DNA from: Chthonomonadales bacterium
GTDB lineage: Bacteria; Armatimonadota; Chthonomonadetes; Chthonomonadales; CAJBBX01
NCBI GenBank assembly: GCA_037443035.1
Contig: JBBIPC010000010.1
Span: 44,276 to 108,275 of the forward strand
Direction: 5' to 3'
Length of the DNA stretch: 64,000 nt
The notes beneath the pieces were generated by a model. That model did not search any database. It had not been told where the DNA came from and saw only the letters and a program-made list of their open reading frames with translations. Made by a program: the position numbers and the translations under genes. This document shows positions 29,364 through 57,696 of this stretch, in pieces. Position 1 is the stretch's first letter; each line of letters begins with the position of its first letter.

Positions 29364-30419
29364 CTAGCCACTGCCGCGAGTGCGCTGCTGAGCCGCTCGG
29401 ACTGTCTCCGCTGCCCTGTTGACAACCGCCAGCTCCTCCCCGTCGAGCTGGGAGAATAGGTCCTGTTCTCTCAGGTCGAAAGACCGCCACGGGCGTTCGT
29501 CTGCAGCGCCGCGCGTGGATCCATTGTGCAGGCACCATCCCGCTGCGCCACCTAGCACGGCTCCCTGCAAGTCGGTCAGGAAGTCCTGGGTCAGCGGTTG
29601 CCAGTCACCGTAGCCTCGGCGGAAAGGTTCCTGATAGTGGATCGGTGCCATCCTCCCCACGCGGCGCATGGCGTCCAGGCAGGAGCGAGTCTCCTTCTCC
29701 GTCTGGGCGGGCGAGCCAGCATGCCGCGGTCTGTGCGGGGCTACGAAATCGAGATCTGCTTCGAGGAGTGCCTGCCGGACGTAGTTGTCGTCGAGGTCGT
29801 GGCCACCGAAGGATGCCGTGACGAGAAGCTCCGGAAACATCTTGCGTGCAAGCTGCCGCAGTTGCCGGATTTCGTGGATCGGCACGAAACGGTCATCTGC
29901 CACATCCCTTTCGTTGGCAAGATCCAGGTACCAGTTCCGGTAGGAGCGGAGAGCCCCCACAATGGTCCGGACAGCCTGCTCATGGGAGGCTATGTCACGC
30001 AGACCGCCGGACGTGGCGCCCCTTTTCCTTGTGAGCGTGATATCTACGATCAGACCCCGACGATCGCACTGCCCCACGAGCTTGACAAGACGGTCGAGGT
30101 AGGGCTGCCGCGGCTTGCCGTACGCATCAACGGCGGAAACATCGGCACCTCGGAAGCTCCACGTGGCCCACACTCGCAGCCAGTTGAAGCCTCGTCCTCG
30201 GAGCGCATCGAGGTCCCGACGCAGCGTGTCGTCGGACGCACCGAGACCGCCATAGTAGCTGATCCCGAGTAGGAATGCGGGGCGGTTCTGCAAGGTGAAC
30301 TGCGTGCCACGAATGCCCAACACGGTTCCAGCGGTGCCGATTGGTGCGAGCGGCGTGGCGAAAACGATAGCCGTCGCGAGCGCCATGCCAATCACGGGTG
30401 TGCCTTGACGACAAACCAT
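29364..30419 (-). CDS. Secreted TIM-barrel protein, GH5/clan-A-like
   Basis: Signal peptide; FLLGISYY, GFNWLRVW, DLANE (acid/base-like), APH, YQEP, GWCLH. Confidence 0.6.
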   Translation of the reverse strand: MVCRQGTPVIGMALATAIVFATPLAPIGTAGTVLGIRGTQFTLQNRPAFLLGISYYGGLGASDDTLRRDLDALRGRGFNWLRVWATWSFRGADVSAVDAYGKPRQPYLDRLVKLVGQCDRRGLIVDITLTRKRGATSGGLRDIASHEQAVRTIVGALRSYRNWYLDLANERDVADDRFVPIHEIRQLRQLARKMFPELLVTASFGGHDLDDNYVRQALLEADLDFVAPHRPRHAGSPAQTEKETRSCLDAMRRVGRMAPIHYQEPFRRGYGDWQPLTQDFLTDLQGAVLGGAAGWCLHNGSTRGAADERPWRSFDLREQDLFSQLDGEELAVVNRAAETVRAAQQRTRGSG

Positions 30420-30521: not shown

Positions 30522-30551
30522 GTGTTACGAGCAGGCGATTCGTGCTACAAT
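30522..30551 (+). promoter_or_regulatory. NikR-like operator GTGTTAC-N13-GTGCTAC overlapping an extended -10 (TGcTACAAT)
   Basis: Half-sites at 30522-30528 and 30542-30548, 20-bp period; TACAAT at 30546-30551; upstream of FmdE/ECF genes. Confidence 0.55.
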
Positions 30552-30599
30552 ACGGCGTTCCGGCTGGTTGCTGGAAGAAAACTTGGGGGAGAGCACGAA

Positions 30600-31319
30600 A
30601 TGTGTACCAACAAGCAGGCGCTTCGTAGGGGCTTCACGCTCATCGAGCTTCTGGTGGTCATCGCCATCATCGCCATCCTGGCGGCCATTCTGTACCCGGT
30701 CTTTGCCCAGGCGAGGGAGGCTGCACGTAAAACCGTATGCATCTCGAATATGCGGCAGATAGGTACCGCTGTGATGATGTATGTGCAGGACTACGATGAG
30801 TACTATCCCATCCTGAAGTCGGTTCCTAATGATCCGGACGGCACTTCGCTTGTTCCCGTCGTGGTCCAAGGGGCCGCCGCTGGTGACTGGGAAGAGCGTC
30901 TCGTGAGCATTACGAACGTCCTGCAGCCGTACACCAAGAACAATGGCATTTTCATCTGCCCATCGGCGGTCGCTGGTTGCCCCGGACGCACGTTTACCAT
31001 ACCAACCTCGCCGGGAAGCCGTGCCCAATGGAAGCTGACGTACTGGGTGTGGGGGTACAACTTCCCTGGTGTGGCGGGTTTCAGTTACACACCGGGCACG
31101 GCAGCTTACAGCAACTTCTGCATCATGGACGGGCGTAGCATGGCATCGCTGGGTTCGTCGGGAGGTTCGATCTGGCCGCCCGCGGAACAGGTGATCATGA
31201 TTGACCAGCGGATCGAGCTCTCGTCCACCAAAGCGCGGTTCGCCCATCGCGGTGGTGCGGCGCACGTGTTCGCTGACGGGCACGTGAAGTGGCGGAAGCG
31301 CGCTGAGGCGGACGAATAG
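30600..31319 (+). CDS. DUF1559-type prepilin N-terminal cleavage/methylation protein with H-X9-DG motif
   Basis: [59 protein letters not shown]. Confidence 0.92.
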
Positions 31320-31352
31320 GCGACAGGCACAGAACAAAGGGGGCCAGGGGGG

Positions 31353-31772
31353 TTGACAGAGAGCGACTGGCAGGTATTGCGTAGGTTCCATGGCCATCTT
31401 GGGCCGTGGCTGATACTGGGTATCAAGATCGGTCAGGCAGCTCTGGCTGCCGTCAAGGCTCGGAAGCACTTCGGCGTCGAGGTGGTAGCGGCGTGGCCAG
31501 ATGCTCCACCGCCTTCGTGCGCAGTGGACGGTCTGCAGTGGGGCACGGGGGCAACTTATGGCAAGCGAAACCTCCGGCTGGAACCCTCGGAGCGGTTCGA
31601 GGTGCTCGTGCGGAATACCGATACAGGGGAGGCCGTCCGTACCGTGCTCCTGCCAACGACCCCAGGACTGCTCCGGCGACTGCTGGAGGCGTACGGCGAC
31701 GAGGACAGTTCCATGCGTGTATGGGACATGGCGGACGAAGAACTGTATCGGATAGAGCGGATGGCGCAGTGA
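31353..31772 (+). CDS. FmdE family metal-binding protein
   Basis: RFHGHLGP, SCAVDGLQWGTGATYGKRNL. Confidence 0.85.
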   Translation: MTESDWQVLRRFHGHLGPWLILGIKIGQAALAAVKARKHFGVEVVAAWPDAPPPSCAVDGLQWGTGATYGKRNLRLEPSERFEVLVRNTDTGEAVRTVLLPTTPGLLRRLLEAYGDEDSSMRVWDMADEELYRIERMAQ

Positions 31773-31773
31773 G

Positions 31774-32325
31774 ATGAACGCTCAGCCCGACCGTGTCCCC
31801 TCCGTGCAAGATGATCCCATGCTCGCCCGAGCACGGGATCTTGCGGCAGGGGCATTGTTCTGCGCTCTCGGGATTACGGTGCCCATACTCTTTCACGTTA
31901 TGGGCGTGGGGAGGGTCTTCCTCCCCATGCATCTTCCTCTGCTGCTGGGCGGCCTCTTCCTGAGCCCTGGCATGGCACTGCTGGCGGGTTGCGCGACTCC
32001 GTGGGCTTCGATGCTCTTTACGGGCATGCCTCCGCTGCCCATGGCCATCATCATGTCGGCCGAACTCGCTGTCCTGTCTGGCTCGGCCTCGCTGGGGAGG
32101 CGCGCAGGATTGCCGCTCTGGGCTGCCGTGTGGACCGCCATCGCGCTGCGTGTCTTGGTCACCTTCGTGCTCACCACTGCTCTGGCACGAGTGCTGAATC
32201 TGCCTCCAGCAGGTGTTGGTCTCGCGTCGGTTGCGGCAGGCCTCCCAGGCATCATCCTGCAAGCAGTTCTCGTGCCAGCGTCGGCCTATCCGTTCTTCAT
32301 GCGGCGGCCGGCTCAGCGTCCGTAG
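31774..32325 (+). CDS. ECF transporter S component, substrate unknown
   Basis: About 5-6 TMs; FLPMHLP, TGMPP, PGIILQ; lacks the MHI N-terminus of NikM/CbiM. Confidence 0.8.
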   Translation: MNAQPDRVPSVQDDPMLARARDLAAGALFCALGITVPILFHVMGVGRVFLPMHLPLLLGGLFLSPGMALLAGCATPWASMLFTGMPPLPMAIIMSAELAVLSGSASLGRRAGLPLWAAVWTAIALRVLVTFVLTTALARVLNLPPAGVGLASVAAGLPGIILQAVLVPASAYPFFMRRPAQRP

Positions 32326-32336
32326 CGAATCCGATC

Positions 32337-32990
32337 GTGAGCGATCCCCGCGTAAGGGTCTTGCTGAGCGCTGTCTACATTCTATGTGTTGCAGCCTCGC
32401 CGTTTCGACCGTGGGTGCGCATGGCGGCATACACTCTGGTATTGGCCGTGGCCGCAGCCGTATGGCGCGTACCCGCCCGTACGCTGATCGTTCGGTTGGT
32501 ACCCATGGCCGGCCTGGTGGCCGCAGCACTAGCTGGCATGGCTTTCGGCTCCACACCGGAAGTGGCAGTCGGGCTGGCCGTGCGCCTGATACTCATGTCG
32601 GCGGCCGGGGTAGTCGTCAGCCTGTCTTTGCCAGGGACGCTTCTGCTGTCCGGCTTGCGATCTCTCGGCTCGCCAGCCACGCTTGTCACACTGCTGCTGC
32701 TGACAAGCCGGTACCTGCATGTCATCGGCGATGAGGTGCTGCGGGTTCAGCGGGCGTGGCGTTCGCGGGCATTCGGCCGCATTGGCCTGCGCCACGCACT
32801 GAGCCTCGGCCGGGCCGTTGCGGCTCTGACGCGACGATCCGCCGACCGATCCGAACGGATCGCGTGGGCGATGGTCTCTCGGGGATTCAGCGGCCAGATC
32901 CCCTGTCGGTCTCTGCCACCGGTGCGGGGCTTCGATGGCGCCCTGGGAATCCTGGTGGCGGCGTGCTTGGTGAGCATGGCGCTCTGGTAG
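32337..32990 (+). CDS. ECF transporter T component (CbiQ/NikQ/EcfT)
   Basis: DPRV.., TMs, RYLHVI.DE..RV..A..SR, RS.DRSERI..AM.SRGF.G. Confidence 0.85.
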   Translation: MSDPRVRVLLSAVYILCVAASPFRPWVRMAAYTLVLAVAAAVWRVPARTLIVRLVPMAGLVAAALAGMAFGSTPEVAVGLAVRLILMSAAGVVVSLSLPGTLLLSGLRSLGSPATLVTLLLLTSRYLHVIGDEVLRVQRAWRSRAFGRIGLRHALSLGRAVAALTRRSADRSERIAWAMVSRGFSGQIPCRSLPPVRGFDGALGILVAACLVSMALW

Positions 32991-32999
32991 CTCCACCCA

Positions 33000-33737
33000 A
33001 TGCAGCCCGTGCCGCTTCTCATTCGTGACTTGAGTTTCCGCTACCCCAGTGGGCAGCTCGCATTGAATGGTGTCAGTGTTACCATCGCGGCTGGGGAGAG
33101 CGTCGCTGTGATCGGACCCAATGGGGCGGGAAAGTCCACCCTGTTGCTGCATCTGAACGGACTTCTCCGGGGTTCCGGTCGCATTCAGGTTGGCGACACG
33201 GAACTGCGCCGAGAGACACTCGGGGCCGTCAGGCGGCAGGTGGGTCTCGTTTTTCAGGATCCTGACGACCAACTCTTCCTGCCCACGTGTCTGGACGACG
33301 TGGCCTTTGGTCCGCTCAACGAAGGCGCCACCTGGGAAGCAGCCGTGCAGCGATCCATGCAGGCTCTCGCTGCTGTGGGCATGACCGAGCATGCGAATAC
33401 GCCTCCTCACCAGCTCAGCATTGGTCAGCGCAAGCGCGTAGCTCTGGCGACAGTGCTCTCCATGATGCCGTCCCTGATCGCCTTCGACGAGCCATCGGCA
33501 GGTCTGGATCCGTGGGCCCGTCGCCAGCTCATTGGGATCATCCGCCATCTACCACAGACCCGTGTGGTTGCTACGCACGACCTAGCCCTGGCACTGGAAA
33601 CCTGTCGGCGCACCATTCTCATGGATGCTGGAACCATAGTGGCAGATGGTCCGACGGCCGAGATTCTGACGGACACCGACCTTCTGTTGTCTCACCGTAT
33701 GGAGCCGCCTGGATACCGTCCGCCGGCGGCATCCTGA
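33000..33737 (+). CDS. ECF transporter ATPase (CbiO/NikO/EcfA)
   Basis: GPNGAGKST, VFQDPDDQLF, LSIGQRKR, FDEP, ATHD. Confidence 0.92.
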   Translation: MQPVPLLIRDLSFRYPSGQLALNGVSVTIAAGESVAVIGPNGAGKSTLLLHLNGLLRGSGRIQVGDTELRRETLGAVRRQVGLVFQDPDDQLFLPTCLDDVAFGPLNEGATWEAAVQRSMQALAAVGMTEHANTPPHQLSIGQRKRVALATVLSMMPSLIAFDEPSAGLDPWARRQLIGIIRHLPQTRVVATHDLALALETCRRTILMDAGTIVADGPTAEILTDTDLLLSHRMEPPGYRPPAAS

Positions 33738-33750
33738 GAGAGGTATCCCC

Positions 33751-36336
33751 CTAGGGAATCTCCTGCTGGGACGCCGACATACGTACTTCGACGCGACAAG
33801 GAAGGCGCAGCGACCTACGAACGATCTGGCCGCCATAGAGGACTGACACTCCGCGGAGCGCAGGAGCAACGCGGACACTTCCCGTCCCGGTTATGTCCAC
33901 CACGAAGCGACCTGGACCCGTCCGCAAGGAACGGACCTGCACCTTGCCTTCTGCCGGTGCGATGGAAATAGGCAACCGATAGACGTCGAGGACATCGCCG
34001 GGTTGTAGCTTCGCCTGTCCCATGGGGACGACGCCGGTCTTGGTGAACGCCGTGGAGACAGGCTCGGCTGTGTGCTTGCCACCTCGCGACAGGACCGTCG
34101 CCAACGGGAACCCGGTAGCGGGCCAGGGATACGTCAGTGGCGTCTTGACGTCCGCCGGATGGTACAGGCGGATTCTCCAGAGCGGTAGGGGATCCCGGCC
34201 TAGTATCGTGGGCGTCTGCGGCCGTTGGACGGCCTCCGTACCCTTGACAACCTGCATCTGGAAGTGTTCGGCCGTCCGAGGCGCTGGCATGCCAAGGGCG
34301 GCCATGAGCGGACGGTACGCAACGAGGTTGCTCGAGAGTGTGTTGACCCAGAACAGGTTGCCCCTCTGCAGCACGACAGGGATTCTCTCTGGCTTGCCGA
34401 ACGAAGGGGGTGCCCCTCGCGGAGGCCAAGCAGCCCACGCTAGCGCCTGAACTCCGCGCTGCAGATGGAACGACCGGCTGGACGAGTCGAGAGGCATGTC
34501 GGACGCGAAACGGGCCTTGAGCGTTAGCCGCAACGCACCCGTAGAGGAGTCGGTGCCAACGGCCGAGACGGGGAAGCCTGGCACGCCGGTGTTACTGAAC
34601 GAGGCGCGCGGTTTCCACTCGACGGAGGCTATGGGAACCCGATAACCGACGTTGCCGTCTGCGTCTGCGAAGTAGGCGTCCGAAAACTCCGCCCAGAAGT
34701 CCCCTGGGATGTTCGTAGCGTTGACGATCACCACCAGGCCCGTGAACCGGACGACAGGCTTACCCGCGTAGGCGTCCATGACTGCCTTCATGTTCTCCCG
34801 ACGCTCGACCCACTGCCCTCCGCTGGCCTTCCAGTCGAGTGGGCTGTTGTTGTCATGGTTCTCGTAGGAGGTTCCTTGGGCGTCCACTCCCAAGAGCCGT
34901 ACGTGATAGAAGGTGTTGGGTGCATTTCGCACGGAGATGTGGAGATACGGGTAACGATTGGCATCCACATCCACTGGACATTCAGCGCCCACCCACTGAT
35001 TCGCTGGTGGAGGCGGTGTTTTCACGAGTGGCAGCGTGCACGCGCCGCTAGCGAACTGGCGAATCAGGGGACCCGTCGCCGATGCGTTCGGTGTGTAGAA
35101 AACGACCCGTGCCCTGCCGCTCTCAGCGAGTCGTACGAGACGCGCCTCGTCCGCTTCCGTGCGTCGGCTTGTCAGAGCCAGCACGATGGGCCTCTGCGCC
35201 GGAAGTCTCCGTGGGATCGCCCCAACGGCTGCTTGTGCCTGCGGGAAGAGATACCGGAACGCCCCGGTCAGTGCGTGTATCTTTTCCGTGCTTCCCGGTC
35301 TTCGTATCTCTTCGGCATAGAGATCGTCCAGCAGGAGAACTGCAGGAGGTAGGGGCGACTTGGCTGGTTGCCGTAACCTGCGCACGATGGCGGACATGGC
35401 ATCCAGGCGCCAGCGACCCCATGTACGATCGGGAAAAATGTGCTCACCCTCATAGAATTCGTTCCAACCGTAATTGAAGACGAAGCGTGGCGAAGTCCAT
35501 CGAGCGAGCTGGAGGTTCTCCTCGAGGAACCTGGTGTCATACGTGAACGTTCTGGCTGCGCGTCCTCCCACTACAGCGCCAGCGTCGTCGTAGTGGACGA
35601 CGAAGGTGACGGACTGGGCATTGACCTGCCTCTGGCCACCCCACCAACCGAACGAATAGGAGCATATCTCCGGGAAATGCTGGAACGCATAGGTTTGGCA
35701 GAGGGCGCCGCAATCGGTCCAGTAGATGCGCACAGGCCTCGCCAGGGCATGGCGCAGACCGTCGAGCAGTCCTCGGTAGAACCGATCCCAGACTGCCACG
35801 CCTCTGTAGCTCTGATCGAACTGATAGCCGTAGAAGATGAGAGGGATCCGACCGTCGTTCTCGACGAGCCAGAGGTGCTTGGGAACGCGATCGTAGAAGG
35901 AACGGACGTCGCGTATCAGCTCATCGCGAAACGCATCCGTCGGCTTGATGAACGCGGGGCGACCATTGAACCGGATCTCCTGGTCGTAGAACATAGCAAC
36001 CCTAGTTCCCGTCTCTCGCAGTGCAGCAACGCACTCGTTGGACGGTTGCTGGCCGAACCACTCGTAGTGGATGCCGTCGAAGCCGGCTTGGCGTATCATC
36101 CGGAACTGGACCGCGTAGTAGCGCTGGGTTACCCCCACCTCGTTCGGTGACAGACCGACACCCTCCCAGTCAGGCCGGAAGGTGAAAACCCGTTGCATGA
36201 CGTCGTACGATTGCTGGGGCGTGACCCTGTACCAGTCGAAGAAGTGGGTGGTGAACAACTGCGGTTCAGCACGGGGCCCCACAGTCAGCGTCACAAGAAG
36301 CATGGTCGAGAACATGAGTGAGCACGTGCGCCTCAT
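33751..36336 (-). CDS. Secreted multidomain protein with GH99/GH71-like N-terminal barrel
   Basis: Signal peptide; FFDWY, AGFDG, YGWNEFYEG (cf. GH99 NEWHEG); central beta-rich CBM-like insert. Confidence 0.6.
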   Translation of the reverse strand: MRRTCSLMFSTMLLVTLTVGPRAEPQLFTTHFFDWYRVTPQQSYDVMQRVFTFRPDWEGVGLSPNEVGVTQRYYAVQFRMIRQAGFDGIHYEWFGQQPSNECVAALRETGTRVAMFYDQEIRFNGRPAFIKPTDAFRDELIRDVRSFYDRVPKHLWLVENDGRIPLIFYGYQFDQSYRGVAVWDRFYRGLLDGLRHALARPVRIYWTDCGALCQTYAFQHFPEICSYSFGWWGGQRQVNAQSVTFVVHYDDAGAVVGGRAARTFTYDTRFLEENLQLARWTSPRFVFNYGWNEFYEGEHIFPDRTWGRWRLDAMSAIVRRLRQPAKSPLPPAVLLLDDLYAEEIRRPGSTEKIHALTGAFRYLFPQAQAAVGAIPRRLPAQRPIVLALTSRRTEADEARLVRLAESGRARVVFYTPNASATGPLIRQFASGACTLPLVKTPPPPANQWVGAECPVDVDANRYPYLHISVRNAPNTFYHVRLLGVDAQGTSYENHDNNSPLDWKASGGQWVERRENMKAVMDAYAGKPVVRFTGLVVIVNATNIPGDFWAEFSDAYFADADGNVGYRVPIASVEWKPRASFSNTGVPGFPVSAVGTDSSTGALRLTLKARFASDMPLDSSSRSFHLQRGVQALAWAAWPPRGAPPSFGKPERIPVVLQRGNLFWVNTLSSNLVAYRPLMAALGMPAPRTAEHFQMQVVKGTEAVQRPQTPTILGRDPLPLWRIRLYHPADVKTPLTYPWPATGFPLATVLSRGGKHTAEPVSTAFTKTGVVPMGQAKLQPGDVLDVYRLPISIAPAEGKVQVRSLRTGPGRFVVDITGTGSVRVAPALRGVSVLYGGQIVRRSLRLPCRVEVRMSASQQEIP

Positions 36337-55773: not shown

Positions 55774-57696
55774 TCAACTGAAATGGATCTGGTAGCTCTG
55801 GACCGCCGGATGGCCTGTCATGCCCAGCAATCCCCAGACGATGCCAGTGAAGAGGTACCGGCCCATGGCAATGCCCAGGAACAGTGGCACGAACCGGACG
55901 TAGGCCGCATGGCCGCCAAAGCGGAGAATCACGCCCTTCAGTACCCAGGCTGTCAGGAATGGAAACCAGAGGTGATAGCCATAGGCCGAAGTCATGGCGA
56001 ACCCCACGGGATGGAGCGGGAACCAGAGAAACCTCTGGCGCGCCCAGTTCATGCCGAAGGCCAGACCCGCGCCGACCAGCGTTTCCATCACCAAGTCGGG
56101 CCGCCAGCCAGGAAGCGCGTCTGCCGGCGCAGCGAGCTGACTGGCGACCGTCTGGAACTGGCGGCGCATGAGACCTAGCTGATAGCCTCCACCGATGTTA
56201 TCCGCACCCTGGCTGTAGCAGACGCTCATGTAGAGCAATCCACCTCCCACGACGCCTGCTACCGCCCCGAAGAGGAATCTGCGCATCGCCACTCGCTGGC
56301 TCATGCCCACCTGATGGGCGAGACTCATCCCTTCCGCAGCGTAAGCGGAAACCTCCGGGAATACGCCTCGCGAAAGACCGCCCACTAGGGCCAGTCCGAC
56401 CAATCCCTGTCCATTGCGGCCAGCCAGGGCGTGAACTCCGAACAGGTTGCTCAGGAGAGACTGCTGCTGCCAGAACGGGAAGAGATACACGGACGGCGTT
56501 CCCGTCTCGCATCGTATCCGAGCGTACACGATGGCCACCGCCAACAGCATGCCCAGGTGGGCGCACGCCACCCACCATGGCAGACCCACGGCTCGGAGCC
56601 ACACGACCATGACCAACGGCCCGCCCATGACGAGAAGCCAGGCCAACCTGGCTGACATAGGCTCGTCGCTGCCCCGGTCGGCAGGCGCTGCCCAGACGCT
56701 TCTGAGACTCGTCCGAAGCTGCGGCATGGCCCGGGCAATGAGGAGAACGAAGAGACAGAGGAACGCTCCCATACCCATCTCCTGGTAATCGTAGGGCGTG
56801 GAAGCGATCTGCGATCCAGCGGCCACGCGCGCAACCGTGGACAGCCGGAGTGCCACGTAGGACAACCAGGCGGTCAGGAGAACGTCCCGCGGCATCAGGT
56901 AGGCCAGACCGAAGATCTCCGGCCGGTACGACACCCACATGGGAGACAGGGACGACCACGGTCGGTCCGGAAACCACAGGCCCACATCATAGCCAGCCCC
57001 CAGCGCAGGCACGGACGGGCTGAACGCGTGGAGCATGTTCAGGCCGTCCAGCGATGCCGTCAGCCCGAACCCGAGCCAGAACAGGACGACGGATGCACTC
57101 CTACCCGAATCGGGCGAGCTCAGGATCCGTAGGGGGACTTGCACCATAGGGTAGCTAAGGCGCTCGTGTTCCATCCACGACCGTCGGAAGAGGCTCAGAG
57201 CGGCTGCCAGGGTGAGCATGAGCGTCCCTAGGAAGAGACCCCAGGCAGCCAATGGGAGCGCCCAGGCGTCCCAAGGGATCGCGCCGGTCCGGCTCCCATC
57301 GTAGAAACGCTGAACAACCTGACCCGCCGGTGGTGCAGCCCATGCTGGAACGCGTTCGAGGACGGCTGCCATCCCCGGTCGGTCCGCCTGTACCTGGGCT
57401 GCTGTCATCTGGCCGAACAGGTAGACCATAGACGGAGTGCTGGTGATGCCTGCGGCCATGACGAGGGCAAGATAAGCTCCTGCCACCACGAACCGTCCTG
57501 CGTGCCATGTCCGACGCAGCGCACGGATGCAGGCCATGCCGACCAGGAGAACGGCCAGGGCAGGTATGGCCGGCAGCGAGCTTCCTATCTGGATGCTGGC
57601 GTGCCGGTACTCAGCCTGGACCACCCAGACGGTGACCCCGATGCAGAGCACGGCTAGACCCATGAGAGCCGCCATGCGTCGGGAGACAGAATGCAT
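55774..57696 (-). CDS. DUF6785/DUF6784-like polytopic membrane protein (putative transporter)
   Basis: IPW.AW..P, W..HERL.YP, R.RCE.G, WFPLHPVG, LRFGG...Y....PLFLG. Confidence 0.75.
   Translation of the reverse strand: MHSVSRRMAALMGLAVLCIGVTVWVVQAEYRHASIQIGSSLPAIPALAVLLVGMACIRALRRTWHAGRFVVAGAYLALVMAAGITSTPSMVYLFGQMTAAQVQADRPGMAAVLERVPAWAAPPAGQVVQRFYDGSRTGAIPWDAWALPLAAWGLFLGTLMLTLAAALSLFRRSWMEHERLSYPMVQVPLRILSSPDSGRSASVVLFWLGFGLTASLDGLNMLHAFSPSVPALGAGYDVGLWFPDRPWSSLSPMWVSYRPEIFGLAYLMPRDVLLTAWLSYVALRLSTVARVAAGSQIASTPYDYQEMGMGAFLCLFVLLIARAMPQLRTSLRSVWAAPADRGSDEPMSARLAWLLVMGGPLVMVVWLRAVGLPWWVACAHLGMLLAVAIVYARIRCETGTPSVYLFPFWQQQSLLSNLFGVHALAGRNGQGLVGLALVGGLSRGVFPEVSAYAAEGMSLAHQVGMSQRVAMRRFLFGAVAGVVGGGLLYMSVCYSQGADNIGGGYQLGLMRRQFQTVASQLAAPADALPGWRPDLVMETLVGAGLAFGMNWARQRFLWFPLHPVGFAMTSAYGYHLWFPFLTAWVLKGVILRFGGHAAYVRFVPLFLGIAMGRYLFTGIVWGLLGMTGHPAVQSYQIHFS

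Follow-up and report, generated by a model that had tools for sequence, protein, structure and literature searches.

A candidate NikR-controlled importer unit combining a prepilin-like DUF1559 protein, FmdE and an ECF transporter in a Chthonomonadales bacterium

Within a 64,000-nucleotide stretch of the genome of a Chthonomonadales bacterium of the phylum Armatimonadota (contig JBBIPC010000010.1, positions 44,276 to 108,275; the whole stretch is called the window below) we analysed a unit of five genes, which encode a prepilin-like DUF1559 protein, an FmdE-family protein and the S, T and A components of an energy-coupling factor (ECF) transporter. We read this unit as a NikR-repressed importer of nickel, probably in the form of a chelate, with a pilin-like capture subunit and an FmdE protein that receives or releases the metal, and we give this reading a probability of roughly 0.6. 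Few uncharacterised families have expanded as far in Planctomycetota and, by the present data, in Armatimonadota as the DUF1559 prepilins. A regulator, an importer and the exchange with a TonB receptor together would turn one such protein of unknown function into one with a bench-testable job and a named ligand.

All five genes lie on the plus strand, namely the gene for the prepilin-like protein of 239 amino acids (30600..31319), fmdE (31353..31772), the gene of the S component (31774..32325), that of a CbiQ/NikQ-like T component with a short N-terminus and an uncertain start (32337..32990) and that of a single CbiO/NikO-like ATPase, the A component (33000..33737). The gaps between them measure 33, 1, 11 and 9 nt, and each open reading frame (ORF) has a higher coding score than the overlapping antisense ORFs. 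Together with the family matches this confirms the preliminary description of five same-strand genes separated by 1-33 nt. That description had the finding begin at 30522; the GTG found there belongs to the operator, and the likely start of the pilin gene is the ATG at 30600 with a ribosome-binding site at 30585-30591. As the upstream neighbour diverges and the downstream neighbour, 13 nt away, converges, the unit is bounded on both sides, and its five genes are probably co-transcribed. The families named earlier were recovered in searches with hidden Markov models for PF07596, PF07963, PF02663, PF02361 and ABC_tran, while PF12822 and TIGR04294 stayed under cut-off.

The head of the unit is marked by a 27-bp quasi-palindrome, GTGTTAC-N13-GTGCTAC (30522..30548), of the type of the predicted NikR signal of delta-proteobacteria, which the available part of the source gives as GTGTTAC-N13/14-GTAACAC (PMC545781). 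Its right half-site overlaps a putative extended -10 element, TGn-TACAAT (30543..30551, plus strand), which was read by eye; a sigma-70 scan called no promoter for the operon. The site has the form expected of a NikR regulon, an inverted repeat of 27-28 bp at a (here putative) promoter. With a matrix built from 31 sites of relatives and trained on pilin upstream regions only, the window operator scores 15.8. This is the second-best value in the genome (G000; 3.76 Mb, 100% completeness) and one of only two above 14, the other and higher-scoring site (C18:8652) being located inside a coding region. Among the 52 prepilin upstream regions of this genome the operator ranks first, and the next best region scores 3.2.

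We then compared the site with those of relatives. A scan of the genome collection with the single S protein as query gave no match, whereas a closer alignment as query succeeded, and the S-gene survey yielded a match in 88 of 401 phylum genomes. Two genomes with marginal matches (G148 and G289) and one with fragments (G201) were left out. The resulting 85 phylum loci consist of 71 examined first and 14 further ones, which were held out from the operator matrix. For the outside lineages the best 80 of 307 confirmed loci were taken, of which 30 from Armatimonadota were set aside and the other 50 counted. Of 51 pilins in this slot, 32 have the operator pattern within 250 nt upstream, and matrix sites stand at the unit head in 7 of the 14 held-out loci and in 17 of the 50 outside-lineage loci. 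The operator keeps its place at the start of the unit irrespective of the gene that follows it, which may encode the pilin, a secreted protein, a TonB receptor, NikR or S. It precedes the secreted protein in seven of the eight loci with a type D pilin (see below), the receptor in three of seven, nikR itself in 10 loci and S in 6.

This is further supported by the regulator itself. A nikR gene adjoins the locus in 16 of the 71 phylum loci and in five of the 50 outside ones, and 20 of 21 neighbouring NikR proteins carry a QH…HxH…C pattern, the residues of which we take to be the nickel site. The nikR gene of the genome studied here lies on contig C20 (PF08753, 105.5 bits) and encodes the same pattern. 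At the level of genomes, where kin are not independent, NikR is present in 81 of the 88 S-bearing genomes versus 129 of the 313 others of the phylum, and a [NiFe]-hydrogenase domain in 83 versus 106; the genome studied here encodes four [NiFe] large subunits with both CxxC motifs. One genome (G001) has neither a NikR match nor an operator site. In one genus both the NikR recognition strand (RFTVS; NikR in L261-L263) and the palindrome (TCATAC-N13-GTATGA; L012, L013, L014) are changed. This pairing is a single event, and its direction is the one expected for NikR control. The locus of this genus has no T or A gene.

Control of the operon by a riboswitch was considered and rejected, as the Rfam scan of the window gave no riboswitch match and 28 scans of relatives' loci revealed no upstream riboswitch for B12, thiamine pyrophosphate (TPP), flavin mononucleotide (FMN) or similar ligands. 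Judged from sequence, NikR is most likely the regulator of the operon, which makes nickel the likely cargo, and not a vitamin or B12. Of the metal complex or vitamin that the preliminary description had envisaged as cargo, the metal is likely to stand, narrowed to nickel by the NikR-type site and by the lack of a B12 riboswitch in these scans.

Three further observations concern regulatory sites. Six loci (L083, L085-L088, L090) have a strong operator-like site 346 nt into the S match, upstream of fmdE-nikM-nikN-Q, which may be an internal promoter or a coding coincidence. In two others (L065, L066) the importer is followed by another pilin, which has an operator-like site of its own, and some NikR regulons thus contain more than one pilin. 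In one genome (G013) two tandem c-di-GMP-I riboswitches (L017:2734-3035) are located about 4 kb from the S gene, outside the operon.

The genome harbours 52 prepilin-motif genes and 45 DUF1559 proteins, and for this reason the adjacency of a pilin gene alone proves little. The gene order is conserved, though, as the earlier proposal had asked to be surveyed. In 51 of the 71 phylum loci the gene immediately before S or fmdE-S encodes a pilin, while a TonB-dependent receptor takes this place in 7, the pilin lies elsewhere in 3 and the contig ends in 2. The 14 further loci comprise seven with a pilin in the slot, three with a receptor, three cut by a contig end and one with an S fragment only. 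Across all 85 loci, the pilin is thus directly upstream in 58 and the receptor in 10. The order pilin-fmdE-S occurs in 11 of 11 S-bearing genomes of the family, and pilin-S-fmdE in most other families. FmdE is present in 52, T in 62 and A in 53 of the 71 loci, and all five genes in 30, the last count being limited by contig ends. In the 50 outside-lineage loci a pilin is absent throughout, and 11 of them carry the TonB receptor immediately upstream. The suggestion that the pilin is an extracytoplasmic capture element gains from its position, since it sits in a slot where it exchanges with the TonB receptor as capture protein; its head offers no clear metal site.

The pilin-like protein carries a class III signal (…RRG|FTLIE) and matches PF07596 with 46.6 bits and PF07963 with 37.1 bits, both above cut-off. 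Its H-X9-DG motif (His205…Asp215-Gly216 of the mature protein) is nearly invariant and reaches 16.3 bits with TIGR04294, just under the cut-off of 19. The canonical prepilin cleavage motif is retained in nearly all members. The structural model consists of one long helix and a globular head, and each of its 22 highest-ranking structural matches is a type IV pilin or pseudopilin, the best of them at a Z of only 5.6 (rmsd, root-mean-square deviation, 3.8; 116 aligned). Foldseek with this model returned no match under E 0.001, a sequence search of solved structures gave matches to the N-terminal helix of the protein only, and the ESM Atlas gave generic names only. A prediction of the complex between S and the pilin scored 0.00; it gave no answer and is used neither for nor against. 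The head, which begins at about residue 36, belongs to a type, called A, with 8 close homologues only, the window's own included, and its extra conserved His is located near the H-X9-DG motif. The genome provides the machinery of a pilus, with five PilB/PilT-like ATPases of the extension and retraction types, six secretin matches and a prepilin peptidase, and at 100% completeness it contains no PF00593 TonB-receptor match.

Several independent recruitments of the heads of types A to C into the nickel slot were considered as well and are unsupported: an approximately unbiased test, which used 36 of 102 tree rows and a tree without a completed careful search and left type D out, does not reject one clade (p 0.73). 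Type D was omitted as one scanned pilin of this type has no DUF1559 match, and type C heads, of which there are 33 homologues, have conserved Cys. In one family (L044, L045, L057, L061, L091, L093, L094, L096) the type D pilin comes after a secreted protein of about 450 amino acids with weak matches to OB-folds (oligonucleotide/oligosaccharide-binding folds).

The S component matches PF12822 under the cut-off (24.2 versus 30.7 bits), and its fold was confirmed by structural comparison of a model with six membrane helices and a predicted local distance difference test (pLDDT) value of 94. The best matches are vitamin-type S components with Z from 16.2 to 13, headed by 4hzu_S (Z 16.2, rmsd 3.1, 150 aligned), and nothing but ECF S components and the S-like BtuM appears among the first 15 matches. 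NikM (4m5c; Z 12.4, rmsd 3.6, 157 aligned) and CbiM (5x3x; Z 10.1, rmsd 4.4, 156 aligned) share the common S-component fold. Their hallmarks are an N-terminal Met1-His2 metal site and an extra helix, according to the available text of PMC3945884; the window S, in contrast, lacks the extracellular Met1-His2 loop, has no His2 at its N-terminus and gives no PF01891 match. With its six-helix vitamin-type model it is thus no NikM/CbiM protein, as had been stated from the start. A sequence search of solved structures with S found no match. The family, which has no name, comprises 2482 clusters at E ≤ 0.001 and 171 at E ≤ 1e-30. Of the 71 phylum members, 68-71 retain His41, Met52, Met85, Met94 and Glu97; the His of the 'LPMH' stretch, by which the preliminary description had named the type of S, is kept in only 46 of 71 homologues and was rejected as the key ligand. 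The T component matches PF02361 (70.9 bits) and, under cut-off, TIGR02454 (75.8), and the ATPase matches ABC_tran with 97.6 bits, its best NCBIfam matches being ECF/CbiO ATPase models under their cut-offs. CbiM/NikM genes are found within 8 of the 71 phylum loci. Elsewhere in the genome, C26:5278-8067 (L101) encodes a CbiM/NikM-PDGLE-CbiQ triple fusion and an ATPase.

The single-domain FmdE protein (PF02663, 72.7 bits, above cut-off) is encoded by the only such gene in the genome. In all 52 homologues His13, His15 and Cys56 are invariant, and the second Cys ligand (HGHxC motif) is replaced by Gly in the alignment to 2glz/2gvi. Three of the four ligands of the His-His-Cys-Cys set of these solved structures, as described in the available text of PMC2954224, are thus kept. 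As the fourth is absent, the site would stay open for exchange. The solved PF02663 members likewise have a single alpha+beta domain with a His-His-Cys site, most family members adjoin metal-ion transporters and one crystal contained mixed Zn/Ni, as far as the same text goes (PMC2954224); the protein described here differs from them by the Gly and by its linkage or fusion to an ECF S component under putative NikR control.

The tie between FmdE and S proposed earlier is borne out by conserved co-occurrence and by two gene fusions. Among 23 long S homologues scanned for fusions, 2 are joined to FmdE, 7 to a methyltransferase and 10 to DUF1893, and in the outside lineages a methyltransferase-like gene adjoins S in 26 of 50 loci. 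From neighbours and fusions we conclude that S works with one of three cytoplasmic partners, FmdE, the methyltransferase or DUF1893. FmdE, present in 52 of 71 loci, is not obligatory, because its slot is exchangeable with the other two domains. There are also many stand-alone S copies of Firmicutes type, some beside DUF1893, without the operator. Pairs or fusions of stand-alone S with DUF1893 (TM1506) are seen in L152, L162 and L183 and in the fusions P0066, P0112 and P0117, often after an aldo/keto reductase with a 4Fe-4S domain. In Aminicenantes, KSB1 and Solibacteraceae (L165, L187, L194, L198, L200 and others) the locus consists of nikR, operator, TonB receptor, S, methyltransferase-like gene, T and A.

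Based on these data we propose the following mechanism. Nickel-loaded NikR would bind the site at 30522-30548, which is observed together with its conservation, and block the overlapping promoter. Under nickel shortage the prepilin would be made, cut at G|F by the prepilin peptidase and then taken over by the type IV pilus/secretin machinery; here the motif and the machinery are observed, and assembly is conjectured. The variable pilin head may then serve as a substrate-specific receptor, in the role that the TonB-dependent receptor has in sister operons, and capture a nickel species, probably a chelate, outside the inner membrane. The six-helix S component, whose fold is predicted and whose His, Met, Met, Met and Glu form a candidate pocket, would carry this cargo, energised by T and A, and the His-His-Cys site of FmdE could accept the metal in the cytoplasm for the four [NiFe] hydrogenases.

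Several observations weigh against reading the unit as a NikR-repressed nickel importer with a pilin-like capture subunit. The window operator is three bases off the delta-proteobacterial consensus in the available part of PMC545781, a level that 45 sites of the genome reach when mismatches are simply counted; because of these sites it is the position and the conservation of the operator, rather than its sequence by itself, that convince. Beyond the family core and the one extra His, the type A head has no conserved His/Cys cluster, which fits a chelate better than bare Ni2+ or else speaks against direct binding. Its variable loops are modelled at pLDDT < 50, and the nickel slot is filled by four head types (A 5, B 6, C 33, D 8). 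The five conserved S residues are equally kept in 17 stand-alone homologues of Firmicutes type without an operator at the head, so they do not prove nickel specificity. The locus lacks T and A in three close relatives, and 8 of the 71 phylum loci start with S and have neither pilin nor receptor. The genome also encodes, on C26, a conventional importer of the NikM/CbiM type, in whose upstream region no NikR site and no Rfam match were detected; this second importer suggests that the two differ in the form of their cargo. Finally, 256 of 401 phylum genomes carry TonB receptors, many pilin-slot genomes included. Pilin and receptor are thus not exclusive per genome, and a general lack of receptors in pilin-slot genomes is rejected on this count.

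The main rival keeps the nickel importer and holds that the pilin-like protein is never part of a filament and acts as a periplasmic binding or accessory subunit, like NikN/CbiN or NikK/NikL, held in the inner membrane by its N-terminal helix. We regard it as unlikely, if to be taken seriously. One long helix with a globular head would suit such a subunit, the Pfam name of the pilin family is SBP_bac_10, NikK/NikL have been proposed as extra periplasmic parts of NikMQO in the available part of PMC545781, and planctomycete DUF1559 proteins fractionate with membranes according to the accessible text of PMC8567305. However, the cleavage motif is retained almost throughout, the partner in the slot of sister operons is an outer-membrane receptor and not a periplasmic binding protein, and the B12 unit described below carries BtuF-like binding proteins besides its pilin. 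That the transporter carries a ready-made nickel cofactor or some other complex (e.g. a nickel tetrapyrrole scavenged in anoxic communities, or cobalt), with FmdE, the methyltransferase-like protein and DUF1893 as alternative processing enzymes, appears rather improbable to us. The vitamin-type fold of S is consistent with this, as are the three exchangeable, sometimes fused cytoplasmic domains, the separate NikM/CbiM-type importer and a tetrapyrrole methylase near one locus; moreover, TonB receptors, with which the S family is paired, typically carry complexes. Yet no cofactor-specific gene recurs in the neighbourhoods, and no B12 riboswitch was found at the S loci scanned.

It would also be conceivable, albeit at quite low odds, that the importer is nickel-regulated and the pilin only co-regulated, remodelling the surface, adhesion or pilus properties in nickel shortage without contact to the cargo. 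A head of four types without an evident metal site and the loci without a pilin would agree with such a role, but not the one-for-one exchange with TonB receptors, nor the same first-gene position with regulator-specific heads in the B12, thiamine and LacI units. With 52 prepilin-motif genes in 3.76 Mb, one of about 50 paralogues might come to lie before an ordinary ECF transporter by chance; the probability of this is negligible, as the pilin slot in 58 of 85 loci across many families refutes it and the operator is located upstream of the pilin, not between pilin and S.

DUF1559 pilins head further regulated units in the same genome. The only cobalamin riboswitch match ends 210 nt before the motif of a DUF1559 pilin, which is followed by two BtuF-like genes (C4:148076-149147, plus strand; L265/L112), and the only TPP riboswitch match ends 133 nt before a DUF1559 pilin followed by thiamine pyrophosphokinase (C2:53343-54305, minus strand; L266/L104). 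All nine LacI-like genes found with one query at E < 1e-10 lie directly upstream of DUF1559 pilins; such units occur on C2, C3, C7, C12, C23 and C24, some near glycoside hydrolase genes. In a sample of 150 phylum genomes we took the 30 riboswitches with the highest scores for each of the two ligands; a DUF1559 pilin is the first gene behind 19 of those for B12 and behind 16 of those for TPP. When 131 heads were clustered by similarity, no two of the labels nickel, B12 and TPP shared a cluster, and the B12 and TPP pilins of the genome studied here group with the heads of the respective label. One idea, which we consider possible though on balance doubtful, is that DUF1559 proteins supply a set of exchangeable receptor heads, each specific for its substrate, to a type IV pilus or pseudopilus, which would bring in small nutrients (nickel complexes, B12, thiamine, sugars) through a secretin of the outer membrane. 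This would be a general alternative to TonB receptors in Armatimonadota, with the present operon as the nickel member feeding an undescribed, NikR-controlled S family.

Operons with a btuB-type TonB-dependent receptor and an inner-membrane importer similarly place the first gene under a ligand-sensing switch before the importer; here, however, the slot holds a 239-residue pilin-like protein in a genome without a PF00593 match. Earlier publications already describe ECF nickel importers under NikR control as well as FmdE next to metal transporters. The delta-proteobacterial nik(MN)QO and nikKMLQO operons, in the available part of PMC545781, share with our unit the 27-bp operator type, a CbiQ/NikQ-like T component, a single CbiO/NikO-like ATPase and extra extracytoplasmic components. 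They differ in that S is here of the six-helix vitamin type without a Met1-His2 N-terminus, and in that a prepilin-like protein and FmdE take the place of NikN, NikK or NikL as extra components. In the 'fishing rod' hypothesis for polysaccharide uptake by planctomycete pili, pilin-like proteins are likewise proposed to bind cargo outside and deliver it to the periplasm (PMC12078418; PMC5394234). It deals with polymers, and no gene is named in the available text, whereas the present case links one particular DUF1559 gene with a metal regulator and an ECF importer. We found no description of a pilin-FmdE-ECF system in a literature search that mostly did not extend to subscription papers, and supplements or regulon databases could already list the operator. 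There is a realistic chance that the pilin part represents a new uptake principle. If true, the NikR-linked S branch would be a second ECF nickel route beside NikM, and the pilus reading would imply a new way across the outer membrane.

Other features were noted beside these units. At C3:209532-210383 (L111), just before a panB-like gene, a pilin head clusters with B12-linked heads and has no B12 riboswitch match. Small proteins of 82-104 amino acids with one N-terminal hydrophobic stretch and no Pfam match recur beside DUF1559 pilins (L104:9153-9464, L106:7676-7930, L110:6131-6397, L114:4747-4992) and are possible partner subunits. The genes flanking the five-gene unit (29364-30419 and 33751-36336, both minus strand) have signal-peptide-like N-termini and a glycoside-hydrolase-like look, without a significant Pfam match. 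Further downstream, the window contains a membrane-protein-like ORF of 640 amino acids (55777-57696, minus strand), and a DUF6785/DUF6784 protein of similar size is encoded near a LacI-pilin unit on C12.

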